A DNA stretch of 64,000 nt from an uncultured beta proteobacterium (GCA_963850515.1 CAWKMH010000033.1:3665-67664); one strand, 5' to 3'. Shown: positions 29,699 through 64,000, counted from the stretch's first letter. Notes: generated from the letters alone by a model not told the origin. Numbers and translations: made by a program.

Positions 29699-30849
29699 AT
29701 GGATGATTCCTCCCAGCCAGCCTGCCTGGCGGTCATCGCCCGTCCGGTTAAGAGTCAAATGACATTGGCGTATTTATTGATGTTCCTTGGCGCATTTACA
29801 TCGATGACCCCATGTGGGTGCCGCCATTACGCCTGGAGCGACGGTTTCATTTTTCAAGATTCAACCCATTCTTCAAGCATGGTGAATGGCAGGCGTGGAT
29901 CGCATACCGGAATAACCAGCCCGTGGGAAGGATCAGTGCTCAAATTGATCAGCTTCATCGGCAGCGCTATGGCCCAGAAACGGGTCATTTCGGATTGTTC
30001 GAGTGTATAGATGATGTGGAAGTGGCCGCAGTATTGATGCGTGCTGCTGAGGAATGGTTGGCTGCGCGACATACCAGGCACGTAACCGGGCCATTCAATT
30101 TATCCATTAATCAGGAGTGCGGCGTCCTGGTGGATGGTTTCGATACACCCCCGATGGTCATGATGCCGCATTCGCGTCGGTGGTATGGCCGGTTACTCGA
30201 AGAACAGGGCTACCAGCCAGTAAAAGATCTGCTTGCCTACTGGGTGGAGGTGGACTTTAAAGTGCCCCGCTTGATGAGCGCCTTGATCGCAAAGTTTTCG
30301 GATCAGGTACGCTTGAGGCCACTACGCCGCGACAAATTTAGCGAGGAAATGGAAATACTGCGTGATATATTCAACGATGCCTGGTCGGAAAACTGGGGAT
30401 TCGTTCCTTTCACCAAGGCTGAGTTTGCCGAACTCGGTACCAGCCTTCGCTTGCTCGTACCCGATGATTGCATTCAGATTGCCGAGGTAGATGGCGTTCC
30501 ATCCGCATTCATGGTGGCATTGCCGAACCTTAACGAAATTTTCGCCGAGCTTGACGGAAGCCTGTTCCCGTTTGGCTGGGTCAAGCTGAGCAGGATAAAA
30601 TCCAGAGGGGCGGTACGCACGGGCCGGATACCTTTGATGGGGGTGCGCAAGCAGTTCCATAATACGCCGCTCGGCATGGCGCTGGCTTTTATGGTAATCG
30701 ACGCGCCCAAGAAGCTGGCGCGCGCAGTGGGCGTTCAGGCGGTTGAATTGTCATGGATACTCGAGGATAACAAACCCATGCGCGCGGTTCTGGATAGCTT
30801 GGGCTGCCGGGAGTATAAGCGTTATCGCATCTATGGAAAAACGTTGTGA
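29699..30849 (+). CDS. GNAT (YghO-like) acyltransferase; probable bacterial ceramide synthase bCerS (one frameshift near 5' end)
   Basis: PWRIY.DDP.WVPPL, GRISAQID, GHFG, GPFNLSINQECG, FNDAWSENWGFVP and ELSWILEDN; clustered with cpgABC-like genes. Confidence 0.78.
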
Positions 30850-30883
30850 TGAACGCACCCCAACGGCAAATCAGGGACTCAAG

Positions 30884-31723
30884 ATGAAAACGGATCAGTT
30901 TATCGCGCTGGTGCTGGCGGCGGATCGCGCTGCCAATGATCCCGTCGCGGGTAAAACCGGCGTGGCCTGCAAGGCAATCGCACCCATTTGCGGCACGCCA
31001 ATGATCATCCGCGTATTGGATGCGCTGGAAGCCAGCGATATGGTGAAAACAATCGTCATACTGGGTCCGCCGGCATCTATTCTCCCCGACTGCCCTGAGC
31101 TGGAGGACCGGATTAAATGCGGGCGCGTTATCTGGCTGCCGAATCTTGATTCCCCCAGTCGAAGCGCGAACAGCGGTCTCGAACAGATTGATCAGGATGC
31201 GCCGGTCTTGCTGACGACAGCGGATCACGCATTACTGACGCCTTCTATCGTGCAGTATTTTTTAAGCAAATCGCTAACGGCACACAGCGATGCAACGGTA
31301 GGCGTGGTCAAGCATGAAGATGTCGCGGCCGCATTTCCCGGCGTAAAACGAACCGTAATACGACTGCAGGATGGCGGGGTCTGTGGTTGCAACCTTTATG
31401 CGTTTCTCAATCATCGGGGAAGGGGCCTGGTTTCGTTCTGGCAGCGTGCGGAAGAGTTGCGCAAACGCCCGTGGCTACTCATCTCCCGCACTTTTGGGTT
31501 CATGACGGTCCTTTCCTATTTGCTGGGGATATTGACAGTTGATAAGGGATTGAAAGCGGTTTTAGCAAAAACCGGCATCAAAGTGCGGCCGGTGTTTTTG
31601 CCGTACCCGCAGGCTGGCGTTGATGTCGATAAGGTTGAAGATATGCTGCTTGTGGAATCCGTTCTGGCGGGAGCGGCACCGCTTGCTCAAGAGCAGGCAG
31701 ATTCGCATGACCTTATCCCCTAG
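30884..31723 (+). CDS. MobA-like NTP transferase of the type found beside bCerS
   Basis: ALVLAADR, KAIAPI, LLTTADHALL, GCNLY, RKRPW and DVDKVED. Confidence 0.75.
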   Translation: MKTDQFIALVLAADRAANDPVAGKTGVACKAIAPICGTPMIIRVLDALEASDMVKTIVILGPPASILPDCPELEDRIKCGRVIWLPNLDSPSRSANSGLEQIDQDAPVLLTTADHALLTPSIVQYFLSKSLTAHSDATVGVVKHEDVAAAFPGVKRTVIRLQDGGVCGCNLYAFLNHRGRGLVSFWQRAEELRKRPWLLISRTFGFMTVLSYLLGILTVDKGLKAVLAKTGIKVRPVFLPYPQAGVDVDKVEDMLLVESVLAGAAPLAQEQADSHDLIP

Positions 31724-31762
31724 CCTTAAAGGCTGTCTCATTACATAGCGGCAAAGAAATCC

Positions 31763-32847
31763 GTGAAGATAATCGATCGATACATCACGCGGGAATTGTT
31801 GATGCCGTTTACGGTAATAGCCGTGATCCTGTCGACATTGTTTTCGAGTTTCAGCAGTGCCAATTTTCTGGCCGGGGCAATGTCGGAGTCGCTCGGCGTT
31901 GGCGCCATGCTGAAGGTCGTGCTGCTTAAGACGGTGATCGCATTGGAAGTGCTGATGCCGATTTCCTTGTATGTCGCGGTAGTCATGGGGCTTGGGCGTT
32001 TATATAGAGACCAGGAAATCAGCGTCTTACGTTCCGCCGGTGTCAGCGAAAATCGCATAATCTTTGCTGTTCTTATCGTTGCCATTCCTGTGGGAATTGC
32101 CAGCGGACTTTTTTCCGTATTCGTGCGTCCATGGGCATATGAAGAAAGTTACATGATGAGTGCCCAGGCAGAGGCGGAATTGAACATGGATCGATTCCAG
32201 GCTGGGCGTTTTTACGGGAGCGAGGGCAAAGCAAGAATGGCAGAGTGGTTTACATTCAGTCCAAGGATAGCGCCGGTAAGCAAATGAAAGATGTATTCCA
32301 CTACATGAATAAAGATGGAATCAGCGAGATTATAGTGGCCAAGGAGGCCTATCAGCAGGAGCCCATAGCGGGCCAACGGCCCCAGATACATTTGCTGGAC
32401 GGTTCCATTTACCGGCTCATGCATTCAGGAACGAAGGATACTGTCGTCCACTTCGAAAAATTGGTCTATTTTACCGATAGCGGAAATAACTGAATTACAG
32501 ACGAAAGGCGACGCCACGGCGACGTTGATGGAATCCGATCAGCCGCGTGATATTGCCGAATTCCAATGGCGGATTTCGCGTCCTATGGCTACGATTCTCC
32601 TGGCCCTTATCGCGGTGCCATTCAGCCGTACTTCCCCTCGTCAGGGAAAAAGTGAAAGGTCTTTTTATGGCGCAGCCGCCGTTTTCGCGATCTACTATAT
32701 CCTGAGTGGATTAGCCCAGACATGGGTCGAGCAGGGTACTATCAGCAGAGTACCCGGTGTCTGGTGGCTTTATATATTGATGGCCTGCTGTTTGCGTTCA
32801 GCCTGCTATCCACCGGGTTCCGGCAGAAGTTATTTCTGCGCAGATGA
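31763..32847 (+). CDS. lptF: LptF/YjgP-family permease (frameshifted)
   Basis: IIDRYITRE, GRLYRDQEISVLRSAGVS and AEFQWRISRP. Confidence 0.85.
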
Positions 32848-33911
32848 CGATAATCAATCGCTATCTGGCGTTCCAGATCGTCATGGGTCTGGGAATCGCT
32901 ACGGTGATACTCCTGCCGCTATTTGGTTTTCTTGACTTGCTGGATCAGCTTGGATGATGTCGGCAAGGGCACCTATCAGGTCAAGGACGCCTTCCTGAAT
33001 ACGGCCTTACTGTTGCCGCGCAGATTTATCCAGCTTGCGCCTTTCATCGTGTTGCTGGGTAATGTTGTCGCATTGGGTCGGCTGGCGGTCGGGTCAGAGT
33101 TGACAGCGTTGCGCGTGGCAGGTCTATCCCCAACCGGTATCAGCCTTGCTCCAGTTGCGGTTGGGTTGGTCTCTTTTATTGGTTACTATGGTACTGGATC
33201 AATTTGTCGCTCCCCAATTGCAGCAGAAGGCTATTTCGTCGCGGGCCGTTGCGCTTGAGAAGAGCGCCGCGCTTGGCAAGCAACTGGGTATCTGGACCCG
33301 GGACAAACGAAATATATTGCGTATCGGTGAAATGCTGCATGCGGGGAAAGCAGCAGATGTCGAGCTAATGCATTTTGACGACAATGGCTTTCTGCTAACC
33401 TATACCTACGCTAAATATGCAGTTTTCATCGATGGTGATCTGTGGGAATTTAACGACGTCACCACCAAAACTTTTACCGGAAACCAGATAAAATCCGCAA
33501 GCACAGAATTCGATGCAGTGGAAACCATTTCTGAATCCGGATGATATTTCGACGCTGACGAAGCCCCCGGAGAGTCTCTCGCCGATCGAGTTGTTTCTGC
33601 ATGTCCGTTTTTTACGCGCCACCGGTCAGGAGGCTGATGCTTATGCACTTGCCTTATGGCGGAAGGTCGGCGGCGCATTGACGACAATTGCAATGTTATT
33701 GCTTTCGATACCGTTTGTTTTCGGATCGGTACGGGCGGGCCTTGCCAACAGGCTTGTCGTTGCGTCCATGCTCGGTATCAGCGTCTACCTGTTCGATCAG
33801 ATTATTGCCAATGCGGGTTTGCTGCTGCACCTGAACCCGGCGCTAACCGCGCTATTGCCCGGGTTGGTGCTGATCGCTCTTGCGAGTTTCTGGTTGCGGC
33901 GAATTTTTTAA
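32844..33911 (+). CDS. lptG: LptG/YjgQ-family permease (frameshifted)
   Basis: MTIINRYL, LDDVGKGTY, GRLAVGSELTALRVAGLS and PFVFGSVR; ATGA overlap with lptF. Confidence 0.85.
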
Positions 33912-34141
33912 CCAAAATCTGGCAGTTGGACGGGGTGAAGTGAGCGGTTTTTGGGGTGCAGAGCAAGGCGGACGACGCGGAATGGTCATCACATTCAAAA
34001 AGTTGCAACGCAGCGCTGTGCCGCAAAAAACTGTTCAATCGCCCCGTAGCGAGCTCAAAAAGGTGATGCCCACGCGTATGAAAAATACTTTTCCGTTATA
34101 GCACCTAACCGACAAATAAGCGGTCAACTGCCGGATTTAGG
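33912..34141. mobile_element. 230-bp MITE of the same family as 17065-17195, with a long internal hairpin
   Basis: CCAAAATCTGGCAGTTGGACGG ... GCGGTCAACTGCCGGATTTAGG; flanks TTTAA / TTTAG; shares the internal CCCCGTAGCG motif. Confidence 0.72.
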
Positions 34142-34581
34142 TTTAGGGGTTTCTTGCTTATTTTCCGTCATTAGGTTAAAAGACCGCATCCATTTCTGAT
34201 CATCGCCGTGTTACCGATGCCGCAATCTGCGCAATTTCCCCAGCCAAACAAATATGAAAGATTTTAAGCAAGTCCCTCCTGGGCGCGAGGATGTCTCAGC
34301 GGCATCGTGAGAATAATGTCATCTTCAGGCAAGAGACGTAAATAGTGTCAGCCTGCCTCGCCTGGAGCCTGATCGAGCGTATCCCATTGCGCTAGTCTTC
34401 CTTCGGGTTTCGCTATCGGGCGTTCATTGCGTTTCACGTCTGGGCTTCTCAGGCCGATCCGCCGCCTTCATGTACGCTTTACGGTCTTTCCAGTTTTGGC
34501 CTGCTCGGTTGCGACTAAGCGCTCCGCAGAGGCTGTTCAAAATTTATAAAACAAGACCACAATCAGACAAATACCCGAAAT

Positions 34582-35815
34582 ATGTCAAAGCCAGTTTACA
34601 TCTATATCGTCGGCGATAGTGAGACGAATATCTGGGGCTTGAGCGGCCGCGAGCGCTTGCAGCGCATGTTAAAGCCCTCTTCGCAGACCCGGTTGGTCGA
34701 TGACCCCGAGCAGATTCCGGTGCATGCATCGGCATTGTTGCTTCGCGCGGATCATCTATTCGATGCCAGGGTATTGGCGGCGTTGATTAACGCAAAAACA
34801 AACCTTGTGCTCGGCAGCAACCAGGGTCAATCCGTCGCGATCCGGGTTATAGATGGTGATGTGCATCAGGTACTGGCGAATTTCGTGGAGGGTGGAGATG
34901 AGCGAACTTTTTCCGATTTTCCTCTTTATGCGCTGAAGGATCTCGATTTATCAAGCCTCCGGCAAAACCTCAAGAAAAGAGATCCTCCTTACGTTTTGCC
35001 GATCAACAATGATAACCGGCAAATGCTCGAATCCGAACTGTTTACAGAGATCTTACAAGGGGGTGACCGATCTCGTGACAAAATGGCTCTGGCCGGTTCC
35101 CGCATTCTGGACGGTACGCTTTTGCGTACGCTTCGGCATACGGCCCAATCACATTACACTGCTCAGTCTTGTGTTTGCCGTACTGGCCGGGGTTGCGTTC
35201 TGGCATAGCTACTATGGACTGGGTCTGGTGATGGGATGGCTGATGACCTTTCTGGACACCGTCGACGGAAAATTGGCGCGAGTCACTGTCACCTCAAGCC
35301 GCTTGGGGGATGTGCTCGATCACGGCCTGGATATCATTCATCCGCCGCTCTGGTATATTGCCTGGGGTGTGGGGTTGACCACAGCGATTAACGCCGCCAT
35401 TCACATCTGGCGGTATTGTTCTGGTTGATACTTATCGGTTATATTGGCGGCCGCTTGTGTGAAGGAGCATTCCAATTCTGGGTCGCGATCGTTTGATATC
35501 TTCATCTGGCGACCACTGGATTCTTTTAGTCGGCTCATCACTGCCCGGCGTAATCCCAACCTCATCCTGCTGACGTTCGGCTGGTTCATGGACAGGCCTG
35601 ATATTGGTCTCTGGTCGGTGGTTGCCTGGCATCTGGTCTCGACGGCATTTCTTGCTGTCCGGTTAGTGATGGGCTGGCAAGCACGGCGGTTTCAGGGTCC
35701 GTTACGATCATGGTTTGAGGAAATCGTGCCAGGGCGGGATGACGGAAAACTCGCTGTTCGTATTTTTGCCCCTTTAACGGTTAAGGTAAATGATAGAAAA
35801 GTCACGCATGGATAG
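34582..35815 (+). CDS. CDP-alcohol phosphotransferase with N-terminal extension (CpgA-like; frameshifted)
   Basis: YKGVTDLVTKWLWP, IRPNHIT, DTVDGKLAR..., LDHGLDIIHPPLWY and ITARRNPN. Confidence 0.8.
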
Positions 35816-36806
35816 ATTGAAGTCTGGAGCACCCGCGGTCGGGTTGCTTTTCAATCCTCTTAGCGGACGTATTCGCAAGCGCAAAGATGCAATAAGGCAA
35901 GCGCTTGCGGCGATTCCAGGCGCGGTCTGCAGGGAAGTGACCAACGCACCGGAGATTAATGCATCAGTGGATGCCTTTATGGATGCCGGTATCGATTTGC
36001 TGGTAATTGTTGGCGGAGACGGTACGGTGCAGGGCGTGTTATGCCACTTATTTGCCACGCAACCTCTTGCGAAGTGGCCCGCGTTAACGGTTGTGCCGGG
36101 GGGAACAACCAACATGACCGCTCTGGATCTTGGCATTTGCGGCAGCCCGGAGTCCATTCTTCAGCAGTTGAGGAACTATCTGCTGAAGCAGACACCTCCA
36201 TTGCTGTTGGAGCGCCATGTACTGTGCATTGAACAAAGCGGCGCGGCGAAGGTTTATGGAATGTTCTTCGGCGTCGGGACTTATTGCCCGGGCAGTAATA
36301 TTCTCCCAGAGCAAGATAAAACAATTAGGTATTACTGGCGAAATTTATTCAGCTATCATCACCGTTGGATACGTTAGCGGCTTGATTTTAGGGCGGCGGC
36401 AGCGGAGCATGGGCGCCGGTTCAGATGTCGATTATTGACAAGGATATTGAGTTGTACCGCGGAACCTTCGCGTTTCTCTTCGCAAGTACCCTCGATCGAT
36501 TGCTGTTCGGCATGCGTCCGTACTGGGGACAGGAGCAGGAACCGTTGCATGTCACGTTTGTCCGGCAGCAGCCAAAGCGCCCCTTACGCTCATTGTTTCA
36601 ATTACTTTCGGGTCGCGGAGACCTCCTCAAGGAAAAAAACGGCTATCACAGCTCCAATACCAAGGTGTTGGAGCTGCGGATGGATGACGTTTATATCGTC
36701 GATGGCGAATCCTACCGTGCGACGAGTCAAGATGGACCGTTGCGTATTACGCGCGGCGGGTCCGATCAGCTTTTTGGTGGCGGATAGCGCAAACGCAGAC
36801 TCATGA
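35808..36806 (+). CDS. Diacylglycerol/sphingosine kinase-family lipid kinase (CpgB-like ceramide kinase; frameshifted)
   Basis: FNPLSG, VGGDGT, PGGTTN, GMFFG and DGE motifs; coupled to the cpgA-like gene. Confidence 0.8.
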
Positions 36807-36807: not shown

Positions 36808-37786
36808 ATGACAAGCAACACCTCAGTACCCGATCGGCAGCTCCCGGACGATTTGATCTCGGAGATGGCCTCGCTGAGTTCAAAAGTTGTATCAGCGGAT
36901 TTTCTTATTCTCGTTGACGCGTTGAAATCCCGGTTCGGGTCATCGCTGCGAAGCGGTGCTTCTTTATGGATCTTGCCTGCGCTCTCACGAGATCGGTGAC
37001 GGGGTGGTGGATTTCTACGCTGTAGTGAACAGCTACAGCGAAGCTTATCCAGAGCATTATCTAGCTGTTCTCAACGCATGGCTGCCGCCAAACGTATTTT
37101 TTCTCGAGGTATCCGCGCAGGAAAAGAAGTTCCGCGCCAAGTATGCGGTGGTTTCGATGGCGGATTTCGAGCAGGGCACCCAACACTGGTTTCACCCCTA
37201 TCTATGGGCGCGCTTTCGCTCAGCCCTCCCGGTTGCTGTATGCGCGTGACGAAACTGGTTCGCACGCGGGTCAACCAGGCGCTGGCCCATGCGGTGCGTA
37301 ACATTTCTCGAATCCAGCCTTCCCTTATTGCCGGGGCCATCCGCAGTGAGTGCCGAGACAATCTGGACCAACGGATTGACCCAGACCTATGCGGCGGAAT
37401 TGCGGCCTGAGCGGTCGACGCGCGCCCGCCAGCTCGTCGAGCTCAATCTGGATGACTACGCACGCTTGACCCGATGCGCCGTACCGGCATTAGCAGGAAA
37501 CGCTGAGGTATTGCCGGATGGGAATTATCGATGTTTAACGGGTGTGGCAGAACGGCGCCACTCGTTATGGCGTTGGCGATTACGCCGCTGGCAGGGAAAA
37601 ATCCTGTCTGTGCTGCGGCTTTCAAAGGCGGCGTTTACTTTCCATGACAGCATCAATTATGCCGCCTGGAAAATCGAGCGTCATACCGGGGTCCGTGTCG
37701 AGGTAACCCCCTTGTTGCGGCGCCATCCGCTGCTTTGGGGCCTGAAGGTTTCGTGGAGATTGTTGCGGCGAGGCGTAATGCGCTAG
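36808..37786 (+). CDS. Conserved protein, nucleotidyltransferase-like (CpgC-like; frameshifted)
   Basis: LLYGSCLR, VDFYAVV, WLPPNVF, AKYAV, YLWARF, TYAAELRPE and YAAWKIERHTG; directly follows the kinase. Confidence 0.72.
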
Positions 37787-37838: not shown

Positions 37839-39038
37839 TCATGAGTATGCCTCTGCTTCAGCAGACGTGTATGGTATCGTTTCGCTTGATTGGAGAATCA
37901 GATCGCAAACTTCGCGGACCGCACCATGGCCGCCGGAGTGCTTACAAACGTAGTGAACTTGCCGCAGAATTTCCGGAACGGCATCCGCTGGGCAAAACGC
38001 ACTACCCACCCGACTCAAACACTTCAGATCGCTGAGGTCGTCGCCGACGTAGCCAATATTTTGCAGGGAAATTCCCCAGCGTTGTGCCAACTCCAGCAGA
38101 AGCGGGAGTTTATTCTGTACACCTGGATAATATTCATCAATGCGCAGTTTCTTCATTCTGGCTGCGACGGCAGGGCTGTCCTCGGTGCTGATAACGCACA
38201 CGCTGATGCCATTTTCCCGCAACAATTGCAAGCCATGGGCATCGCGCGTATTGAATTTCTTCAGTGCTTCACCGGCGGGTCCATAATACATTCCGGCGTC
38301 GGTCAGTGTACCGTCTACATCGAGCACCAACACTTTAACCTGTGAGGCGCGAGCTTTCGCCGATATCAGTTTTTGTTTCAACAAAAGCTGCTCTACAGCC
38401 GTCCAGCCCGCTTCATCGATCACTTCGATTGCGGTCTCGGCAGCCATTTCATGGATGCCGATGTGGCCACCTAAACGGCAGCCGTGATCTCTGAGCGATT
38501 TCGCTCCGGTTAGATAGAAAGCACCATTTTCCACCAGATACCCTTCAATATCTTTGGGCACAGGGCGTTTCCGGGGGTCATGGTCAACCGGCGCACCTGC
38601 CGGGGTCCAAAAGAAGCGTTTGGACTGCACGGCAGTTAGAAGGGAATCCAGGTTTTCAGAAAGAAACTTATGCTTGGCGGCACGAAAGTCTTCCGCCCGC
38701 GTGAGGGGCGAAGCGGCCCGAACCAGACATACGACATCAAAAAGAATCTTCTGTTGAAACTCAAGCAGCGCGCTGTCCATGCTGCCGTCATCCTTCACGG
38801 CGGAGTAATCCAGAACCTTTATCGTCTTATCAGACGCCGGAAATTCATCGGATATTTTCTTGCGAATCTCCACCGATGAGTCAGTAATGACATAAATGGT
38901 GTCGAAACACCCGGATGCGATGGCCTGCTCCAGGACCCAGGCGAATAACGGCCGTCCCGCAATATGGCGCGTAGCATTTCGGAGAATCGGAATCGATTCG
39001 AAATTTCCATGCAGAGGTATGAGAGCTACCCAACGCAT
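37839..39038 (-). CDS. Fused CMP-sialic-acid-synthetase-like domain (degenerate) + KdsC-like C0 HAD phosphatase
   Basis: NeuA-fold N-terminus (ENGAFY). HAD motifs DVDGTLTD, FNTRD, GDDLSD, PADA and GGHGAVRE. Confidence 0.88.
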   Translation of the reverse strand: MRWVALIPLHGNFESIPILRNATRHIAGRPLFAWVLEQAIASGCFDTIYVITDSSVEIRKKISDEFPASDKTIKVLDYSAVKDDGSMDSALLEFQQKILFDVVCLVRAASPLTRAEDFRAAKHKFLSENLDSLLTAVQSKRFFWTPAGAPVDHDPRKRPVPKDIEGYLVENGAFYLTGAKSLRDHGCRLGGHIGIHEMAAETAIEVIDEAGWTAVEQLLLKQKLISAKARASQVKVLVLDVDGTLTDAGMYYGPAGEALKKFNTRDAHGLQLLRENGISVCVISTEDSPAVAARMKKLRIDEYYPGVQNKLPLLLELAQRWGISLQNIGYVGDDLSDLKCLSRVGSAFCPADAVPEILRQVHYVCKHSGGHGAVREVCDLILQSSETIPYTSAEAEAYS

Positions 39039-39916
39039 CAGTTGAAGTGAACTCCCTGCACGCGTTTGAGCTTGTCGCGCTGCGAAAGCTCGATCTCTGT
39101 CATTTCATTTTCCTTGACCCGTAATGTCTTGCAGACGTTGCGAACATCCCGAACCAGCCTGCGCAGCCCGTCCGGTTCCAGCGACGCGGCATGGTCGGTT
39201 CCCTTCCAGGTCCGGTCCAATGTGAAATGCCGTTCAATCCAGGATGCGCCTAAAACCACGGTTGCAATATCAACGGCAATGCCAAGATGGTGACCGGAGA
39301 ATCCGATTTCCTTGACGCGGGAGCCAAACTTATCATTGAGGATCTGTATTTCCAGCAGGCAGACCTGATCAAAAGGAACGGGATATCCGGACGTGCATGC
39401 GTACAGAACAACTCGGTCGGCGGCGCCGCACTTCTCCATCAATTGCACGATCTGCTCTTGTTCAGCAGGGGTCGTCATGCCGACGGATATGTGAATGTCA
39501 CCGCCATAATGGTCAGCAAGATACCGCAGCATGGGAAAATTGAGATTACATGCCGAGGGTATCTTGATGAATTCCGGGTTAAGGCTGGCAATTTCTTTTG
39601 CTGAGGTAAGATCCCAGACCGACGTCGAGTAGCCGATCCCGACCTCCTGGCACCATTGCTGTAATTGCCGATGCTGATCCATGTCGAATTCGAGAAATTC
39701 ACGGTGCGCGCCATAGCTTTCCCCATAACTGTTTTGGGGGTTCGGATGGCGTGCACCATATTCTTCAGGGGTAAGTAATTCCCTGTTCGAACGCTTTTGA
39801 AATTTTACGAAATCGCATTTCGCAAATGTTGCCGCGATCCCTATCATTTCGCGGGCGATCTCCATGTCCCCCTTATGATTACAGCCTATTTCAGCAATGA
39901 TTTTTGGTGTCTTCAT
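39038..39916 (-). CDS. neuB: Nonulosonate(-9-phosphate) synthase, NeuB family, without C-terminal SAF domain
   Basis: IAEIGCNHKG, KFQKR, KIPSA, GFSGHH and ERHFTLDRTWKGTDHAASLEP. Confidence 0.88.
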   Translation of the reverse strand: MKTPKIIAEIGCNHKGDMEIAREMIGIAATFAKCDFVKFQKRSNRELLTPEEYGARHPNPQNSYGESYGAHREFLEFDMDQHRQLQQWCQEVGIGYSTSVWDLTSAKEIASLNPEFIKIPSACNLNFPMLRYLADHYGGDIHISVGMTTPAEQEQIVQLMEKCGAADRVVLYACTSGYPVPFDQVCLLEIQILNDKFGSRVKEIGFSGHHLGIAVDIATVVLGASWIERHFTLDRTWKGTDHAASLEPDGLRRLVRDVRNVCKTLRVKENEMTEIELSQRDKLKRVQGVHFN

Positions 39917-54263: not shown

Positions 54264-54740
54264 TTACTTTATGCCCCAGTAGGAAGCGATATGATCGATG
54301 ATAAGACGGTTGGTTTCAGCATCGATCTCATAAGTCCGCTTGAAGTCCGGAGGTCCCGGCCAGCCCGAATCCGTAAATTCCCTGGCGTTGAAATACTTTG
54401 TTTTCGCATAACGAGGGATGACATGGAAGTGCACATCCGGATCAACCATCATCAACATCAGGTAATTCAGCCGATCGTAATTGAAAGCCTTGGCCAAAGC
54501 GAACTCTAGCTGCGTTATCACCTGATGAAGCTCAGTAAAGCTTTCCTGGCCAAGTTCCGAAAGTGAGCGAGCTGGCTCATGAGCGGCCAGAATCAGGGAA
54601 CCAAGCGTTAGCTGGGCGGGACGCAACATGACGCTCCAGTATTGGTATTGATGAATTATTGTCTGTGGCGCGCCAAACTTCCGCATGGTTGCGTTAAAGG
54701 CGGGGATATCCGGCGAGACATTGGTCATCGAAGAATCCAT
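54264..54740 (-). CDS. HIT family nucleotide hydrolase
   Basis: RPAQLTLGSL and NYLMLMMVDPDVHFHVIPRY. Confidence 0.85.
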   Translation of the reverse strand: MDSSMTNVSPDIPAFNATMRKFGAPQTIIHQYQYWSVMLRPAQLTLGSLILAAHEPARSLSELGQESFTELHQVITQLEFALAKAFNYDRLNYLMLMMVDPDVHFHVIPRYAKTKYFNAREFTDSGWPGPPDFKRTYEIDAETNRLIIDHIASYWGIK

Positions 54741-55149
54741 GAGATTTGGTAGCTGATGAGTTTGTCTTGCGAGGCTGGAGCCGATATTGAGTATTACTCG
54801 CAGGATACTATGCAAAACATTTCGGCACAATCGCCTGTCTTGCGCCCGGTGCAGGGTAACGTTAAGGAGCTGTGTTATACAGGGAAAGTTAAGGAGCTGT
54901 TATCGAGGAGGCGGCGTTTTTCAATATATAGTCCGAAGGGACTATATGCGCCGCCGTAGCAAGGCGCTATTTTATTAGAGGCGCTTATTTTATTATTTTG
55001 AGGTTACCGATGGGGCGACATTTTGTAATTGAAACTTAAGAAGGCTTCTTGACAAATGCGGTAACTGATCAACAAGCTGGAAAAATAATAAAAGCGCGGA
55101 CAGATGTTCTGCTATCTTTCCTGACATGCTGCAGCGAATGCGAGGGTTC

Positions 55150-56471
55150 ATGAAAATTATTAATGGCTTCAGCATTGACAGGATTACCCGGGACTTGAGT
55201 GGCGCGATGTGGATTCTTGCGCGACTACCGGAGGATAACTCGGCGGCGACGGCCATCCACCGGTGCTTCCAGCGCGAGGTCTGGCGTGAAATCAGCTTCC
55301 GCGAGCGTCTTTTAGCGTGTGTGGCTCTGCCGTTCGTCCCATTCGTGGTTGCTGCGCTGGTAATCGTGTTTACCACGCTCAACGGGAGCGCCATAAAGAA
55401 GCGGACAGGAAAGGGAATCACTCGGCAAATGTGGGAGCAGATCGGTCTTGCGGCCCGGTTTGCGATCCTGTCTCCCTGGTACTATATCTTCGAACTGCAC
55501 GACGACGACAAGAGAAAGCATGCTGGTGAGTACCTGAATCGGCTTGAAACAAAAGCCGGGCTGTATCTTTTTTTGCGCGACTACAATGGTGGACTTTCCA
55601 TCCCCACCGAGCGGAGCACAATATGTATAAAAGACAAAGCACGTTTCATGGCCCGCTGCCGCGAGTTCGGAATCAAGACTGCGCCCATCCTCCTGAGCGT
55701 GGAGAAAGGAGAGGTCACCGCAGTCGATTGGAACGGACCGGGGCTGCCCGAGATCGATCTCTTCGTGAAACCGCTGTATGGACAAGGGGAAAAAATGCCA
55801 CGCGCTGGGATTACCTGGGCTCGGGGAAGTTCCGGCGCAACGATGGCGAAGTTGCTACTGAGGATCAAGTACTTGATGGTCTGCGGAAGGCCTCTTGGCA
55901 GAATATTTTTCTGGTGCAACCGCGGCTCGTAAATCACCATGAGATTGCCGACCTCGCCAATGGTACGCTGGCGACTGTTCGTGTGATGAGCTGTCGTAAC
56001 GAGCAAGGCGGATTCGAAGTCACCAACGCGGTTTTTCGCATGGCGCGGAATAGTGCCGTCATTGTCGACAATTTCCACGCCGGAGGAATCGCTGCCAACG
56101 TGGATATCCACACCGGTGAACTAGGAAGAGGAGCTTGCGGGGCATGGGGAGCAACTGCGGATGGCTGGTATGAGCGGCATTACGAAACGCACGCTCAGAT
56201 ACTGCAGCGCAAGCTTCCGTGCTGGCCTGAGCTGATAGAGCTGGTGCAATATGCCCACGCCAGCGCCTTTTCCGATCAGGTAGTGATTGGTTGGGACGTC
56301 GCCCTGCTCGATAGCGGTCCGTGCCTGATCGAAGCTAACAAAGCACCGGACCTGGACATTATCCAACGGATCGGTAATGGTCCCGTAGGTAACGAACGGC
56401 TTGGGAAACTTTTGGCGTTTAATTTGAGACGGACTGTTGAGACCAAGTATGCCCGCGCAGAAGTATGCTGA
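55150..56471 (+). CDS. Sugar-transfer-associated ATP-grasp protein (one frameshift)
   Basis: DKARF, FVKP, TLATVRV, VDNFHAGG and IGWDVA...LIEAN. Confidence 0.78.
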
Positions 56472-56589: not shown

Positions 56590-57379
56590 CTATTCATCTG
56601 TAATAAGTTCAGCTTGTATAGATGGGCTCTGCGGGATTCCATTCTCCTTCGTTTCGGCGAAAAGCGCTTCAGCCCGTGCCAGATCCGCGGCGAAATCAAT
56701 TTCACACCAAACGATGCCCGGATACGGAACAAGCATTGACCACTTGTTTATCAGCCAGCCCGTCAATGATGTTTAGATACCAGAATTTAAGCGCTGCTTG
56801 ATGCCGAAGTGCATTCTCGACTGCGCTGCGGAACAATTGCGGTCCGCGATCCCGGAAAAAAATAAGACCGATAGACTCGGCATCGGTTTGAGCCGCGGAT
56901 AAAGTTTTGCTTACGTGCTTGACCCATCCTTTTTCATCCAGCTGGACTTTCATGTCGTCCGTATCATAAGTGGACTTGTAATCTACCCCCAGGGTAATAG
57001 GGGCGGGATCCGAGTTCAGCATCTTCGCCAGCACAGCCGCGTCAAAAACGGTATCCCCGTTCAGAAGCAGAAAATCGCTATCCATTACAGAACGCGCAAT
57101 CCAGCAACTAGCCAGGTTATCGGCAACCTCAAAGAACGGATTAAAAATCGTACTGATCTGAGCGTGATTTGCATAACGCTGTTGCAATCGAGCTTCAACC
57201 AGGCTGGACTGAAAACCGGTCACGACAGTGATTTCGTCTATGCCTGCTGCCAGCAAGGTATCGATCTGCCGCTCAATGATTGGTTTGCCCGAAACCGGCA
57301 AAAGACACTTTGGCATGTTTTCAGTTAGCGACAGCAGCCGCCGTCCCTGGCCAGCGCCGAGAATAACCGTTTTAGGCAT
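56590..57379 (-). CDS. LicC-like cytidylyltransferase (CpgD-like; frameshift near 3' end)
   Basis: ILGAGQGRRL..LT..PKCL, FNPFFEVADNLASCW, LNGDT, YDTDDMKV, AESIG, WYL and WCEIDF. Confidence 0.8.
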
Positions 57380-57679
57380 TTTTTCTTTACTGCCCATCAT
57401 ATCCGCTGGTTTTGGAAATGCTTCAAAAATGTCGTTAAAGTTTGACGCTTCTAAGTCATTATCGCCATTCATCCACTCAAATTCAGAGGGAGGGGAACCG
57501 AGTCGGCTTCGCAGGCTGCTGAGTGCGCTAGAGTGGATATTGCGATAGGAACCTCAAGTACGCCTTGGGAACTGTCCATATTGTACTCGTCCCGTTAAGC
57601 TTAGGGAGTATCTCGATAAGCTTCTTCGCGGAATTCGCATTGGGGGCTGCCGCCCTCTCGTGAGGATCTTTCGTATTAT

Positions 57680-57772: not shown

Positions 57773-58414
57773 TCAGGTGAGCAACGGGCTCAGATCAGGC
57801 AATATGTCCACGTGCGCAGGAAAGGGGTTTTTATCCCCGGGCCGCACGCGGCCCAGGAATGCGACATTGTTAAGCTGTGCGCTTTGATAGTCGATCAACG
57901 CGTCGCCTATCATCAGCACACGCTCAGGCAAGAGCGTGTGATTCGATAAAATATCCGCGATCAGCTTCTGTTTTGGCGTGGGGGAGCCGCACACAGCGGT
58001 AAAATAGGAGGCCAGGCCACGGCGAACGACAATTGTTTTAAGTTCCGCTTCCGGTGTGCCGGAAGCGACAAATAAAGGAATGCGTGTCGCTTCTTTACGG
58101 ATCAGCTCCGTTGCACCAGGTACCGCGTCACTGGCAATCACGGCCTCAACGACCAATTCGGAAAAACGACGATCCAACTCCTGTTCTTCATCCGGAGTCA
58201 GCGGGGGTTTTTCTAAAAGATGCTCCTGAAAATAACGAAATTTGTGATAGCGCGACATGCCTCCGTGCAAGCTGTGATACTGCATCACCGCAGCCATCAC
58301 TGTTTCCCCATAGCTTCGATAGAGATCGCCGAAAGCTTGTGTCTTGATTTCCCCAGATTCGACCACCACGCCATCGAAATCGAAAATGATGGCTTGCCAC
58401 GCCGTTGTGTTCAT
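57773..58414 (-). CDS. HAD-family phosphatase
   Basis: FDFDGVV, VASGTP, PK and MIGDA..D. Confidence 0.88.
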   Translation of the reverse strand: MNTTAWQAIIFDFDGVVVESGEIKTQAFGDLYRSYGETVMAAVMQYHSLHGGMSRYHKFRYFQEHLLEKPPLTPDEEQELDRRFSELVVEAVIASDAVPGATELIRKEATRIPLFVASGTPEAELKTIVVRRGLASYFTAVCGSPTPKQKLIADILSNHTLLPERVLMIGDALIDYQSAQLNNVAFLGRVRPGDKNPFPAHVDILPDLSPLLT

Positions 58415-59342
58415 GCTTTATTGTCGGACGCCAAGGGCGTCGCCTCGTCATCTTCACCTGAGTGGTGCATGGTCCTGTGGATATCCCGCAGACAATCCAG
58501 TAAACCCTGACCCAGATCGACATGTTCGTTAAGTACCAATTTGCGGCCAATACGGGGTTGAAATGCATAAGGAGTAACCTCATAATGGTGCCCCGCATCG
58601 CGCCTCGTCGAAATGTAATTCGATTTTCCACGGCATGATTTCCGAAATCATGGTCATGACATCCTTGATGCGTAACCGCTCCTGTCCGGTCAAGATCAAA
58701 TGGCGATTGGCAAACTCTGGCGCCAGCACCTGAACACTCATGCGCGCCGCATCCTCGACATGGATGTATTCGCGGATCGCCTCACCGCTACCATGGTACG
58801 TTATCGAATGACGTGTCCACCGCTTCGTGCAGCATACGGTAGATACCATTACGTGCGTCAGCACGCCTGCCGTACAATGATCCATAGCGTAAAATACTAT
58901 AGTCCAGCCCGTAGCGCTCATGATAAGTCTCGATGAAGCGTTCTGCCGCCTGCTTGCTGGCACGATAAAAAGAACCGGACTCGGAATAGACATAAATAGT
59001 GCTGGCAAAAACAAATCGGCGCGCTCCAGCAAGACGCGCTGCTTCCAGTGCGTGCATATTACCTAATACATTAATTGTAGCGGTCGCCAGGGGCTTATCG
59101 TGGGCTTCATCAATATCCGCAATGGCAGCAAAATTATAAACAACATGAGCGCCCTTAGCCGCTTCCGTCACTTGATCCAGATTCATGATGTCACCGATGA
59201 TCATCTCCTGATCGGGACGCTGATAAGGCGATGGGCGGCGATCAAACAAGCGCACACGATAGCCGGCGTCAGACAATGCATCGGCCACATGGCTTCCAAG
59301 GAAGCCGCTGGCGCCATACACAATCGCAATTTCGTTAGGCAT
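58411..59342 (-). CDS. NAD-dependent epimerase/dehydratase (frameshifted)
   Basis: GASGFLG, YRASK, LRYGSLYG and REYIHVEDAA. Confidence 0.85.
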
Positions 59343-60290
59343 TTCCGTGTTGCCTGTCTTTCATTACATCCGCTTTAATCAGACCCTGAAGCAGATTCTC
59401 CGCGGCTTCCACCTCCATGCGCTGACGTGCTTCCTTGGCGTGGGAGCCAATATGTGAGGTAAGAATTGCCGTTTCACATTTTAGCAGCGGACCGTGATAC
59501 GGTTCCTGCTCGAAAACATCGAGTGCGGCCGCAGCCAGGTGACCAGAAATCAAGGCCTCCGCAAGGTCGGTTTCATCGATAAGGCCGCCGCGGGCCGTAT
59601 TTATCACTACCGCACCTGGTTTCATGCGAGCGAAAGCCGCCTTATCCAGCAAGTGGTGCGTGTCGGCGCCATAAGGCAAGTGCAGGCTGATGATATCCGC
59701 TTCCGCCAGAAGATCTTCCAATGGTACCAATCGTACTCCTTGCGGCGACTGGTCCACATATGAATCATGCGCCACAATCTCGGCCTCAAAAGCCTGGCAC
59801 AGACGCGCGACACGCCGCGCCGACGCGGCCCAGTCCGATGATGCCTACCCGCTGGGCAGCGAGCAGACGTCCCTGCGTTCGCGGCCATTTGCCCGCACGG
59901 AGCAATCGATCAGTCTGGCATATCTGCCTCAAGGCGGCCAGTATCAGACCCATGGTGAGTTCAGCAACTGCCTGCGCCGGGGCCTCTGGCGTATTAAGAA
60001 CAGTGATACCGTGACGTTTTGCTGCGGCAAGATCGACACTATCCAGCGCCGCTTCCGCAGCGAGACACTACTTTCAGGCTTTTGGCGGAGGCAAAAACGC
60101 GTTCTGTCAGGGGTTCTATGCCTGCGATCATCCCGACGGTATCCGTACCCAGCAATGCGATGGTTTCGTCTTCCGTAAGTTTGCGCCCATGGCTGTTTCT
60201 GGTGATATGCATGCCCTCTTTCAGCAAATGCTGAAGAGGGGGATTGTTGTCCACATCAAACGATGAAGTGGAGATGACGAGTTTATTCAT
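59335..60290 (-). CDS. D-2-hydroxyacid (phosphoglycerate-like) dehydrogenase (frameshifted)
   Basis: SRCG.G, NTP, AVAEL, ISLHLP, INTARGG, ALDVFEQEP and TSHIGS. Confidence 0.85.
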
Positions 60291-61048
60291 AGAGCTTCCC
60301 TTATATTCTGCATATGACTGCGGCAAACGGTGTCCAGGATACGAATATCCAGACCATAACCAAGAAAATTGAAGCCGGCCTCGATATATGCGCCGTAACT
60401 GGTCCGGATCCGGCTCAACCACATGGATGCCTCCCGGTTTGCCTAGGCGGCGCCCAGCTTCATGTACCTGTTCTATCGCGGACTGAACTTCAGGATAATC
60501 CAGTTCGCCGGGACGCCCCATGGAACCGGACAGATCGTAAGGGCCAATGATATAGGCATCAATTCCGGGAACGGAAAGAATGGAATCGATGGCATTGACG
60601 CATCAATATGCTCTATCATGGCTACTATGACTGCATTATCCTCCAGCCAGCGCCGATATTGCTGAAATCGTGCGCCATAACCTTGCGCGCGGGCCAGACC
60701 CACTCCCCGCTGACCCCGAGGCGGATAATAGACAGCTTGTACCGCAGCTTCGGCATCCGCGGCGGTTTTGACCATGGGAACCATTACACCCGTTGCGCCG
60801 GCATCCATGACACGCTTGATCTGGTCAGGATGATTTGAAGTCAGCCGCACGATAGCTGGGCATCGTTGGCCGTCGAGCACCTGGATCAGCATCTGAACGT
60901 CGCTTAGTTCCAGGACGCTGTGCTCTGTATCCAGTACCAGCCAGTCAAAACCGGCCGCAGCCATGATCTCGGCGATCGCTGGATGCCCCAGGGTGATCCA
61001 TGAGCCAATGGTCAATGCATTTCGGGCCAGTTTCGATTTTAATTGCAT
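60287..61048 (-). CDS. HpcH/HpaI class II pyruvate aldolase (frameshifted)
   Basis: GFDWLVLDTEH, YYPPRGQRGVG, MIEH and GPYDLSGSMG. Confidence 0.88.
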
Positions 61049-61101
61049 AGCTATTCCTTGAGGAGAGTTGCAGAACAGGCCTGTGTTTGTGAGTATTTGA
61101 T

Positions 61102-61858
61102 TCAATATGAGGCCAGCAGTGGGTCGGCCTCCATCAATCTGGCGACACGCTCCAGATCGGCCTGAGTATCCACCGCCTGCGTGTTGAACTGGGTTCTCAC
61201 CATCTTCACCCGATAACCGTGCTCCAGCAACCGCAGCATGTCCACGGACTCCAGTTGCTCCAACGGAGTGGCGGCAACCGGGCGAAATCGAGCAATGTTT
61301 CACGCCGGAATGGAATAATGCATACCTGCTTATAGGCGAGTGCATGCGGAAAATCCGACTGGGATGAGGCCGGAGCGGTCGGTATCGGTTGTCGCGACAT
61401 ATAAAGAGCGTCACCCTGCTGATTCATCACCACTTTAATGGTGTTGAATCGTAGAAGTCAGCTTTGTTATCGATAGCGCGCACCAGATTAACGCAGCCCA
61501 GCTCGGGGATCGTGCCGAAATGGTTCTACCGCGGCATCGATCATTTCTGGGTGGGTCATCGGTTCGTCGCCTTGTACCATCACGATAAGTTCAGCATCAA
61601 TTCCGGCCACGGCCTCGGCAACCCGATCACTCGCGCGCTCATGGGTGTCAGCAGTCATTATTACGGCAGCGCCAAAATCCTCCGCGGCTCGCCGGATTTC
61701 CTCGTCGCAAGTTGCTATATAAGTAGCATCAAGGGATTGCTCAGGGCAACACGTTTGTAGACATGCTCCAGCATGGTACGCCCCAACAGTTTTGCAACCG
61801 GTTTTCCGGGAAAACGCGATGAACCCATGCGCGCCGGTATTACAGCAATTGTTTTCAT
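61102..61858 (-). CDS. kdsB: KdsB-like CMP-ulosonate cytidylyltransferase (frameshifted)
   Basis: [35 protein letters not shown] and QAVDT..DL. Confidence 0.82.
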
Positions 61859-62226
61859 TGGTAAATCATGTTAATTGATGTCTATCAGATAATAGGTGCA
61901 TTTCATTATTGGCTGTCGATTATCGGCCCTGTACATTAGTATCGGGAACGGATCGGCCTAGAATGGCTTTTTTGAAAGCTCGTTTTTATCGTGTCCATTC
62001 CTGTCGCCAGGAAAAATACCTTGCCGGAACTTGAACCTGAACCGGAATCAGCTTTCTATATTAACAGAAGTCTGTGGGAGTAAAAATACCGGCTGTGCTA
62101 GTAAACGAATATCGCCCCGTGTACAATTACGCGCATTTTTCGTCGCAAGAAACAAATCGGAATAATCAATGAAATGATGGATATACTGCTTTTTGCCATC
62201 AGCACGCAAAGAATGAAAACGCGAGT

Positions 62227-63551
62227 ATGAAGGCCCTTTTTTTTCTACGCCATTATAACGACATAGATCATATTACACCGGTAATTTCCAGATGGATCGA
62301 TTCTGGTCATACCTGTGACATTGTCCTGATAGGCAACTCGCGGTTTCGCAATGATTACCGCATTAAATTTCTGAAGGGAGCTCAATGGCGTGCGCATGGC
62401 CTATATTGCCGACGTGTTGCCGCCGATCGAATTTGTGCGGTGGTTTCTGCAAACACTGATACTCATCCGCAGCTTGCGCCGCCCCTTCCTGGCGCCGCTC
62501 ATGGCGGCACTGGCGGAGGTATATGATGCCAGGCGGCGCGCGCCGGTCTGGCACAGCACCGCGCAGCGCCTGCTGACCCGCAGCTTCGGCGGCACGCATG
62601 AAGGCGTCGTCGTATTTGACTGGATAGAAAGAAATTCCTCCATCTGCGTGGAATGGGTCGAGATAGTGCTATCGACGGCGCGCGCCATGGGTCTGGGCAC
62701 GGTATCGCTGCCGCATGGAGACAGCCCGCATGCCAGCCAGTTGATCCGGCGCCGTGAACTGCGCCTGGAACCCGACACCACATTTGCCAATGCGGGAATT
62801 TTCGATAAAGTTGTCGTACCGAACGAATTCTGCTCCGTGCGCTTTCGCCCTTTCATGGATAACCAGAAGCTTGCCGTCCTGGGTTCGCCGCGCTATTGCG
62901 ACGAATGGCTTGCCAAAGTGGCCAGAATTGATGCCGCCTTCGCCCCTGACCCGCTCCGATAGCCGGCTCAAAGTCGTCATGTTTTTCAGAAAGAGCAACT
63001 TTTCCACGTTCTGGGAAGAAGTAGGCGAAGTCGTGCGCATCGTGGCCGGCTTTCCCGGGCGTGGAGCTGATAATCAAGCCGCACACCCGCGGCGGATGGC
63101 AGCAATCCCTGACCAAGGACATGTCTCCCTGCGGCGCCTGCCTAACGTGAGCGTGGCGGGAGATATTCATTCCATTTACCTCATGAATTGGGCGGACGTA
63201 ATAATCGACCTGGCCACCTCGGTTGTATTTGAAGCGGTAAAGGGAAGAAGCCAGTACTGGCGGCCGACTACCTTCATGCCGGGCGTTCCGCACTGGCTGA
63301 ATACCATGCCTGAGGCAGAGCTGCGCTGCCGGGATGACGTATATAGACAAATTGAAAGGTTTCTTACCCACGGCTGCGACTCTTTTTATATAGAAGAGCA
63401 TCGCCAACGCTTCGTGAGGGAAATGATCGATGTTGGTGATCCCGACGTATTGTCCCGTTATGTTGCATTGCTGGAAGGGCAAGTACGGTCAAAAACCAGC
63501 CAGAACCGGGATCATCCGCATGATCGTGCCGCTAAACTCGCTTTCGCTTGA
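62227..63551 (+). CDS. Uncharacterised GT-B-like protein, paralogue B (frameshifted)
   Basis: MKALFFLRHYNDIDHITPVIS, SLPHGDSPHASQLIR, VLGSPRYCDEWL and ADVIIDLATSVVFEAVK, all shared with 46860-48155. Confidence 0.75.
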
Positions 63552-63593
63552 TTGGCCTCTGCCGGCCGACGTTCCAAGGGGATTACTGACCGT

Positions 63594-64000
63594 ATGTCGG
63601 CAAAGCCATCCATTGATGTGGTAATCCCGGTCTATAATGCGCAGGAGCTGACGCGGCATTGCATCGATTCTGTCGTTGCATGCCTCAGCGAATCGATCCG
63701 GCATATTTATATCCAGGATCATGCGTCCGATGTCGAGACGCGCATGATGCTCGATCAATTGCCGTATGAACAGGTCTACGTTCATCACGCACAGAAAAAT
63801 CAGGGCTTCGGTGTGTCGGTAAACGAGGCAGTCGGTCGCTCCGACGCGTCTTTCATATTGATACTCAACTCGGACACGACGTCAAGCGAGGATTTTCTGC
63901 CGACGCTGTGCGCAGCGATGGCGGCAGACCCGCAGCTAGCGGTCATTATTCCCGCGGCAACGACTATGCCAGAGACAATCTGGACCGGTATGTGCGCGCC
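63594..64000 (+). CDS. Family 2 glycosyltransferase (partial, runs off the window)
   Basis: MSAKPSIDVVIPVYNA, QDHASD, NQGFG..VN and LNSDT. Confidence 0.82.
   Translation, partial: MSAKPSIDVVIPVYNAQELTRHCIDSVVACLSESIRHIYIQDHASDVETRMMLDQLPYEQVYVHHAQKNQGFGVSVNEAVGRSDASFILILNSDTTSSEDFLPTLCAAMAADPQLAVIIPAATTMPETIWTGMCA

Follow-up and report, generated by a model that had tools for sequence, protein, structure and literature searches.

In the Sphingomonadaceae, glycosphingolipids (GSL-1 to GSL-4) replace lipopolysaccharide (LPS), and uronic acids and hexoses are attached directly to ceramide; no phosphoglycerate anchor, nonulosonate or sugar like 3-deoxy-D-manno-oct-2-ulosonic acid (Kdo) is known in these lipids. 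Caulobacter crescentus makes ceramide phosphoglycerate (CPG) and CPG2 (PMC9393093, PMC11324152, PMC12275187), and its genes for these lipids, CC_1154-1161, have been tabulated with orthologues in Nitrosomonas eutropha, Neut_1100-1106 (Olea-Ozuna et al. 2024, PMC11324152). Nitrosomonas europaea and Nitrosospira multiformis, for their part, have been reported to lack nearly all Kdo2-lipid A genes (Opiyo et al. 2010, PMC3087551). Here, we consider a stretch of 64,000 nucleotides (the window; GCA_963850515.1, CAWKMH010000033.1:3665-67664) from a Nitrosospira ammonia oxidiser of the family Nitrosomonadaceae, in which genes for a ceramide head group are interleaved with genes for ulosonates activated with cytidine monophosphate (CMP). 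We propose that the window is an outer-membrane glycolipid island of Nitrosospira whose product, an ulosonate-bearing sphingolipid, would stand in for LPS, a reading that we regard as quite possible, if somewhat short of probable.

The source of the window is a metagenome-assembled genome (MAG) that is 68% complete, and its genes were identified by listing open reading frames (ORFs) and by Pfam and NCBIfam scans. The names that matching proteins carry in public sources assign the genus to Nitrosospira/Nitrosovibrio. As a reference, we used the closed relative G009: its sequence is 88-95% identical to that of the window and runs collinear with it from 23.7 to 64 kb, and all its locus genes are intact and ordered as in the window. 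G009 proteins were also mapped onto 40-kb regions of other genomes; in 21 Nitrosospira genomes the region surrounded cerS, and in 10 genomes from two further genera (2 from genus g10 and 8 from genus g11, Nitrosomonas) it surrounded kdsB. Several of the genome tallies given below take in the unpublished genomes G005 and/or G030, neither of which enters the locus maps or the specific claims.

How does the locus compare with that of Caulobacter? The two share gene families in nearly the same order (cerS, a CC_1153-like gene, lptF, lptG, cpgA, cpgB and cpgC, with cpgD nearby), and the order at 29.7-37.8 kb matches that of N. eutropha Neut_1100-1106:

29758..30849, + strand: bCerS-like ceramide synthase (CC_1154/Neut_1100 type), weak GNAT match, 97-98% identical to the intact G009 gene
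30725..31723, + strand: CC_1153-like MobA-type nucleotidyltransferase (PF12804, E 2e-12), in the position of Neut_1101
31763..33911, + strand: lptF and lptG, split here by frameshifts (PF03739 on five ORF pieces)
34582..35815, + strand: CpgA-like CDP-alcohol phosphotransferase (CC_1159 type; PF01066), frameshifted
35790..36806, + strand: ceramide kinase-like gene (CerK/CpgB, CC_1160 type; DAGK_cat, E 1.6e-16, with lipid kinase family matches), frameshifted
36808..37786, + strand: CpgC-like protein (CC_1161 type), weak Tam41 match, in the position of Neut_1106

The second half of the head-group genes lies some distance downstream:

53059..53853, - strand: dPGM-type phosphoglycerate mutase (PGM; TIGR01258, 265 bits)
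54264..54830, - strand: HIT-like protein (weak PF01230)
55126..56471, + strand: sugar-transfer-associated ATP-grasp ligase (PF14397), frameshifted
56593..57472, - strand: CpgD-like cytidylyltransferase (CC_1152/Neut_0268 type; PF00483 and PF12804, with an inositol-P cytidylyltransferase-like match)

These two halves, at 29.7-37.8 kb and 53-57.5 kb, were found at about the places given by an earlier reading of the window made from its sequence only (the sequence-only reading). The orthology of bCerS to CC_1154 rests on Table S2D of PMC11324152; the gene is present in 41 of 43 genomes of the genus, and the CpgC-like gene is kept in all 21 Nitrosospira locus maps. The genes for CPG formation (the putative ceramide kinase CpgB and CpgC) are present in the order of Neut_1105/1106, and those for CPG2 formation, CpgA and CpgD, both lie in the window and are present or missing together across the 21 maps and genome G022. 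CpgD yields CDP-glycerate, which CpgA is thought to use, and a dedicated enzyme supplying phosphoglycerate for CPG2 has been described as not yet identified (PMC12275187). The dPGM-type mutase is a candidate for this supplier; its gene stands next to cpgD in 13 mapped genomes, among them G022 with its relocated cassette (see below), and is missing from G002. In that genome, a second partial set (a cpgA-like paralogue, PMT fusion, PGM, HIT, a cpgD-like gene and a GT-B-like gene; G002:C21:205372-212947) accompanies the main locus, which is on contig C15.

The entry enzyme of sphingolipid synthesis, Spt, is encoded apart from these genes. G009 has an AasR-CerR-AcpR-Spt locus elsewhere, with an Spt that scores 599 bits on the betaproteobacterial model NF047599 (cut-off 500) and is flanked by genes for an acyl carrier protein, a short-chain dehydrogenase/reductase (SDR) and a fatty acyl-AMP ligase. 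No Spt was found in the 68%-complete MAG itself; in the family, Spt exceeds the curated cut-off in 107 of 108 good genomes, versus none of eight sister-family genomes. A first Spt candidate, the best PF00155 match, proved to be an aspartate aminotransferase beside uvrB.

For all this likeness, the Nitrosospira locus departs from that of Caulobacter in several ways. The LptF2/G2 genes of Caulobacter are a second pair, whereas the Nitrosospira LptFG pair is the sole one: each of 5 complete genomes holds exactly two PF03739 genes, both inside the cerS operon, together with one copy of LptD, so that the idea of an extra LptFG pair had to be dropped. (The relocated cassette of G022 carries a further LptF-like gene, 61% identical to LptF, bringing that genome to three genes of the LptF/G family.) The Nitrosospira host, unlike Caulobacter, lacks lipid A, and cpgA and cpgD are optional within the genus. 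Finally, the Nitrosospira cpgD sits with a dedicated PGM, HIT-like, ATP-grasp and nonulosonate genes, none of which has been described for Caulobacter.

The loss of lipid A extends across the family. A search of 137 family genomes from four genera yielded no LpxC, whereas all 8 genomes taken from sister families in the order have it; WaaA was found in 0 of 13 and 0 of 5 genomes, versus 8 of 8 in sister families, and LpxB in 0 of 5. In the Nitrosospira genomes searched, KdsA gave only matches at the level of DAHP synthase (at most 107 bits, against a cut-off of 314) and KdsD only CBS-domain fragments. KpsS/KpsC-type Capsule_synth genes (PF05159) were likewise found in 0 of 5 complete genomes. 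These bacteria share with the Sphingomonadaceae a Gram-negative envelope that lacks lipid A and presumably has sphingolipids in its outer leaflet, although the Nitrosospira case is betaproteobacterial and gene-based.

Amid these absences, one gene of the Kdo route is universal. The KdsB-like protein, which belongs to the KdsB subfamily NF009905 (299 bits, cut-off 255) and has Escherichia coli KpsU as its best match in the Protein Data Bank (PDB), is encoded at the head of an operon:

57773..61864, - strand: kdsB-like gene, HpcH aldolase, D-2-hydroxyacid dehydrogenase, SDR epimerase/dehydratase and HAD phosphatase

The kdsB-like gene is the sole strong CTP_transf_3/KdsB homologue in each genome, and 132 of the 133 good family genomes carry it once, at 67-100% identity; the notion that the window holds a second kdsB was rejected, the window copy being the only one in the genome. 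All 31 locus maps that extend to the operon show it intact, and it lies next to the cerS cluster in every Nitrosospira map (21/21) and both genus g10 maps (2/2). Its dehydrogenase resembles phosphoglycerate or glycerate dehydrogenase. Its HAD phosphatase, judged by its position beside cpgD, is possibly the counterpart of Caulobacter CC_1157. The cpgD-like gene is co-oriented with the operon and lies downstream of it, just as the sequence-only reading had it. In three g10 genomes of 1.3-2.2 Mb (G055, G056 and G060), the kdsB-like match contains one in-frame TAA and is otherwise conserved.

Nitrosomonas has a different arrangement. There, 16-47 kb separate the kdsB operon from spt in 17 of 31 genomes that have both on one contig, and in 4 of 16 that are closed or nearly closed; the ulosonate operon is thus linked to sphingolipid genes in a second way. 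Genomes with this spacing include G092, G094, G077, G147, G076 and G122. The operon's neighbours in the eight Nitrosomonas maps are Wzy_C genes (8/8), GT-B-like genes (7/8) and GT2 genes (4/8).

Between the two halves of the anchor genes lies the part of the locus that varies. The Nitrosospira frame is invariant (KAS and cerS through cpgC; a variable slot; then HAD, epimerase, dehydrogenase, aldolase and kdsB; then GT-B-like and GT2 genes), and it is followed by the housekeeping genes CorA, Ppx, PhoU, RpiA and IlvA. Besides the cpgD neighbourhood listed above, the slot and its far flank hold the following genes:

37839..39038, - strand: fusion of an N-terminal cytidylyltransferase (PF02348) and a C-terminal KdsC/KDN-9-P-type phosphatase (HAD)
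39038..39940, - strand: NeuB-family nonulosonate synthase, about 300 aa (PF03102, E 2e-71)
40057..41458, - strand: TIGR04396 "surface carbohydrate biosynthesis protein", 466 aa (428 bits, cut-off 125)
41765..42700, + strand: protein with a weak methyltransferase-like match (PF13578, E 1e-3; nothing in NCBIfam)
42888..45420, + strand: PseF-like CMP-nonulosonate synthetase, Gfo/Idh/MocA oxidoreductase and PtmA-like SDR, with overlapping stop and start codons
45717..46838, - strand: phospholipase D (PLD)-superfamily protein with two PLDc_2 stretches
46860..48242, - strand: GT-B-like protein, the cassette paralogue, 70% identical to the kdsB-side paralogue
48621..49825, + strand: Wzy_C (WaaL/PglL/Wzy-type) membrane protein (PF04932), frameshifted
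49845..52437, - strand: GT2-GtrA-PMT_2 (GT-C, ArnT-like) fusion, 864 aa and intact in G009, with one frameshift here
62228..63551, + strand: second GT-B-like protein, divergent from kdsB, frameshifted
63552..64000, + strand: GT2 glycosyltransferase (PF00535), running off the window end

Domain scans thus bear out the modules that the sequence-only reading had named between the two halves (NeuB and phosphatase, CMP-synthetase and two oxidoreductases, PLD, GT-B-like, WaaL-like and GT2-GtrA-PMT_2 genes). Of the five or six nucleotidyltransferase domains it counted, five are clear and the sixth is a weak Tam41-like match, and, in keeping with its remark that no wzx, wzm/wzt, wzz or kps genes are seen, the window ORFs gave no match to flippases, ABC transporters or chain-length regulators.

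Across the 21 Nitrosospira maps, the contents of the slot are nested in grades:

Type A, 7 genomes: empty, no cpgA
Type B, 2 genomes: cpgA and (PGM, HIT) cpgD
Type C, 2 genomes: B plus the GT2-GtrA-PMT_2 fusion
Type D, 3 genomes: C plus the phosphatase/cytidylyltransferase fusion, NeuB, TIGR04396, PLD, GT-B-like, ATP-grasp and Wzy_C genes
Type E, 7 genomes including G009 and G008 (the window is also of this type): D plus CMP-synthetase, Gfo and SDR genes

One of these maps, that of G044, ends its contig inside NeuB and was labelled "E?", leaving 20 of the 21 genomes fully typed. A true NeuB occurs in 14 of 30 good Nitrosospira genomes, and in 13 of the 14 it sits 9-12 kb from cerS (for G025 and G033, this distance is all that was checked). 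The fourteenth is the exception: in G022, a 26 kb block (G022:C1:195137-221120), 730 kb from cerS, contains NeuB, SDR, Gfo, CMP-synthetase, cpgD, GT2, PGM, HIT, ATP-grasp, the PMT fusion, the LptF-like gene, cpgA, the phosphatase fusion, TIGR04396, PLD and GT-B-like genes. In no mapped genome does NeuB occur without cpgA and cpgD nearby. Since NeuB is near these two genes in every mapped genome and moved jointly with them in G022, the nonulosonate and CPG2 genes behave as one unit, and this co-travel is the strongest support for a functional tie. According to a tree built from ten locus proteins, the deepest lineages carry the full cassette, which has been lost at least two or three times. Conservation of the linkage, which the sequence-only reading had put forward as a check, therefore largely holds for both the kdsB operon and NeuB in Nitrosospira and for the kdsB operon in g10, and breaks down in Nitrosomonas, as discussed below.

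What might the cassette enzymes do? The NeuB-family protein aligns with the NeuB model (329 positions) over positions 3-274 only, its C-terminal part being missing, and its score reaches the equivalog cut-off of neither NeuB nor PseI. The phosphatase of the fusion exceeds the cut-off of TIGR01670 (144 bits) and falls below those of the KdsC and KDN-9-P phosphatase equivalogs, and the PseF-like CMP-synthetase (133 bits) is likewise below its equivalog cut-off; the CMP-synthetase, Gfo and SDR genes occur in type E cassettes only. No NeuC, PseB/C or LegB/C-type genes were seen in the stretch. In G009, an insertion relative to the window (G009:C1:1363590-1366751) between the TIGR04396 and methyltransferase-like genes encodes a HAMP/HisKA histidine kinase and two further ORFs.

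As for transfer of the sugars, the TIGR04396 protein has a weak match (57 bits, against a cut-off of 200) to the family of BFO_1060, a homologue of the transferases for pseudaminic (Pse) and legionaminic acid (Leg) derivatives of Tannerella (PMC5420450), which makes it a candidate nonulosonate transferase. Tanf_01245/BFO_1060 of Tannerella forsythia (PMC5420450) and TIGR04396 proteins are both of TagB/GT-B type and tied to nonulosonate loci, and the window protein is a full-length TIGR04396 member; the Tannerella enzymes, by contrast, act on a protein O-glycan. The two GT-B-like paralogues (434 and 439 aa) have no Pfam, NCBIfam or PDB sequence match, a sequence-profile search against the PDB included, and the best 120 matches to their family are all from Nitrosomonadaceae where the source is named. 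A member stands beside kdsB in 28 of 31 maps (G047, G050 and G147 lack it), and the feature neighbours of the family in a protein atlas are TagF, Capsule_synth (KpsS/C) and epimerase_2 clusters. Foldseek returned generic GT-B folds at a TM score of about 0.3, and therefore no donor specificity can be read from the model; an hhalign comparison of the family with the TIGR04396 protein was not significant (probability 2.6%). The transferase roles of both the GT-B-like and TIGR04396 proteins are thus leads, not assignments. Each genome encodes 2-5 Wzy_C proteins, so the ligase-like gene of the cassette could equally be a polymerase or a protein O-oligosaccharyltransferase. A second GT2-GtrA-PMT_2 paralogue, at 69-82% DNA identity, was present elsewhere in every genome checked (G009:C1:2915336-2917901; G007, G008, G011 and G002), and the cassette copy is therefore an extra one.

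From these parts, we can outline how a glycolipid might be assembled; the gene content, the absences, the synteny and the joint movement of the cassette with cpgA/cpgD are observed, and every substrate and the acceptor are inferred. By homology with Caulobacter, the anchor operon would convert ceramide to ceramide-1-phosphate and then to CPG and CPG2. In an inner module, the HpcH aldolase would make a 3-deoxy-2-ulosonic acid from pyruvate; because KdsA, KdsD and WaaA are absent, this aldolase is the most likely source of a 3-deoxy-2-ulosonate. The KdsB-like enzyme would activate the ulosonate with CMP, and a GT-B-like enzyme would transfer it. The outer cassette would run a nonulosonate route via a phosphorylated intermediate, using the NeuB-like synthase, the phosphatase/cytidylyltransferase fusion and the second CMP-synthetase with its two oxidoreductases, and would further contribute cpgD with its dedicated PGM, HIT-like and ATP-grasp proteins, as well as the TIGR04396 protein, the PLD, the GT-B-like paralogue, the Wzy_C ligase or polymerase and the GT2-GtrA-GT-C fusion. 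The CPG/CPG2 anchor would receive the ulosonates, either directly or as part of a glycan that is joined to it afterwards, and LptB2FG-LptD would carry the product to the surface in place of LPS. Such a scheme resembles Kdo2-lipid A and LPS assembly in its KdsB-family CMP-synthetase, Wzy_C, LptF/G and LptD and in its layout of a conserved inner and a strain-variable outer part; it differs in having an HpcH aldolase operon where KdsA and KdsD would supply the sugar and, as transferase candidates, an unnamed GT-B-like family. The likeness to animal gangliosides is in concept alone (a ceramide anchor and a CMP-activated nonulosonate): the Nitrosospira anchor would be a phosphoglycerate-ceramide.

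Several points weigh against a sphingolipid home for the ulosonates. The usual carriers of nonulosonates are flagellins, pilins, S-layers, capsules or LPS, some Wzy_C proteins are protein O-oligosaccharyltransferases, and Caulobacter CPG2 is not known to carry sugar; protein or polysaccharide could also be the home of the nonulosonate. Seven of the 21 Nitrosospira genomes lack the cassette and also lack cpgA and cpgD at this locus, the kdsB operon lies beside cerS in none of the eight Nitrosomonas maps, and N. eutropha spreads these genes over three separate loci; the interleaving of two ulosonate pathways, as the sequence-only reading described it, is therefore not general. The co-variation of NeuB with cpgA/cpgD comes down to three contrasts that are independent on the tree, too few for a test (two agree in direction and none is opposed, p 0.5); the AlphaFold model of the GT-B-like protein, which has no sequence match to solved structures, is weak (pLDDT 59, with a poor C-terminal half); and the copy of the locus in the window is rich in frameshifts. 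Might the two sets of genes, then, be neighbours and nothing else? The lipid would be plain CPG/CPG2, and the NeuB, CMP-synthetase, Wzy_C and GT-C genes would glycosylate proteins (pili, flagella, S-layer) or build an undecaprenyl-phosphate polysaccharide, all gathered in an envelope recombination hot spot flanked by miniature inverted-repeat transposable elements (MITEs). Besides the typical linkage of nonulosonates to protein or polysaccharide, it would fit such a hot spot that the TIGR04396 protein has its closest named relatives among the Pse/Leg transferases for the protein O-glycan of Tannerella, that the Wzy_C family, with its several paralogues, cannot tell WaaL from PglL or Wzy, that the cassette is variable with MITEs inside the region, and that few independent evolutionary events are on record. 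It fits less well that cpgA and cpgD, head-group genes of the Caulobacter sphingolipid, move with the NeuB block in G022 and always accompany NeuB in the mapped genomes, or that the universal kdsB operon stays near sphingolipid genes in three genera and two arrangements. We hold this explanation to be possible, if doubtful.

A different thought is that only the Cpg genes act on ceramide and that the kdsB-like operon serves another lipid-anchored polymer, such as a glycerolipid capsule with a KpsS/KpsC-like ulosonate linker, or supplies an acidic head-group precursor instead of a glycosyl donor. In its favour, the closest solved relative of the KdsB-like protein is the capsule enzyme KpsU, Capsule_synth and TagF clusters are among the neighbours of the GT-B-like family in the atlas, and the operon encodes a phosphoglycerate- or glycerate-dehydrogenase-like enzyme and a HAD that by position may correspond to CC_1157 of the Caulobacter sphingolipid cluster. 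However, the complete genomes searched contain no Capsule_synth gene and the locus contains no kps-type exporter, and because the operon is universal and single-copy in an LPS-free family, an essential envelope component fits better than an optional capsule; we consider this explanation improbable. Most improbable of all is that ordinary LPS-core or O-antigen genes cluster by chance beside sphingolipid genes, the simpler alternative that the sequence-only reading had offered. KdsB-like, Wzy_C, LptF/G and glycosyltransferase proteins are usual LPS gene families, but the absence of LpxC from 137 family genomes and of LpxB, WaaA, KdsA and KdsD from the complete Nitrosospira genomes searched, with which published surveys agree (PMC3087551), effectively excludes it. 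The glycolipid island is thus the reading that we carry forward. Its broader form, in which the Nitrosomonadaceae as a family would build an LPS-like molecule on ceramide-phosphoglycerate (an inner 3-deoxy-ulosonate from an aldolase route independent of phosphoenolpyruvate, with the lone KdsB; a variable outer nonulosonate; assembly by GT-B-like enzymes; export by Lpt), strikes us as rather unlikely.

The state of the window sequence itself deserves comment. Frameshifts interrupt about 14 window genes, many genes being spread over two to four frames, and, relative to G009, window positions 23700-64000 (about 40 kb) contain 136 indels that are not multiples of three; they are evenly spread and also affect topA. 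About a quarter of them fall in homopolymer runs of 3 or more. Because topA is hit alike and the genes are intact in G009 and 20 other genomes, we take the frameshifts for assembly errors and not decay, and we rejected the view that the frameshifted genes are pseudogenes; the consensus sequence of the MAG appears to contain many errors or to combine more than one strain. Two repeats lie within the region:

33911..34150: MITE-like multicopy repeat between lptG and cpgA, dozens of copies across the genus at 73-90% identity
45528..45700: a second, different MITE-like multicopy repeat after the SDR gene, with many copies in G009, G007 and G008

The latter reaches a depth of about 480 in one sequencing run. 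Transcript data touching the cassette genes consist of short contigs from one soil metatranscriptome and one doubtful RNA run, at 90-98% identity, and show neither expression nor this strain.

How much of this is new? That a nitrifier carries the CPG2 genes and that ammonia oxidisers lack lipid A genes is already known. The remark in the sequence-only reading that it knew of no description in nitrifiers must therefore be narrowed, given the published N. eutropha CPG/CPG2 genes (PMC11324152) and lipid A gene loss (PMC3087551). In the literature searched, we found nothing on a sole LptFG pair inside a ceramide operon, on an aldolase operon near sphingolipid genes that is kept across the family and contains the lone KdsB, on a nested cassette whose nonulosonate genes travel with cpgA and cpgD, or on the unnamed GT-B-like family.

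Betaproteobacterial ammonia oxidisers drive nitrification in soils and wastewater, and the absence of their lipid A genes has been reported since 2010 without explanation. The locus described here offers a testable answer for the outer leaflet, an anionic and probably glycosylated sphingolipid, and it names candidate genes: the lone KdsB with its aldolase operon, the unnamed GT-B-like family, the TIGR04396 protein and the CpgD-dedicated PGM. If this proposal is true, it would extend the range of cargo carried by the Lpt machine, provide a second route to CMP-activated ulosonates and add a new class of bacterial glycolipid. It would also account for strain-level surface variation in nitrifiers, with a bearing on their differences in phage, grazers and serotype.

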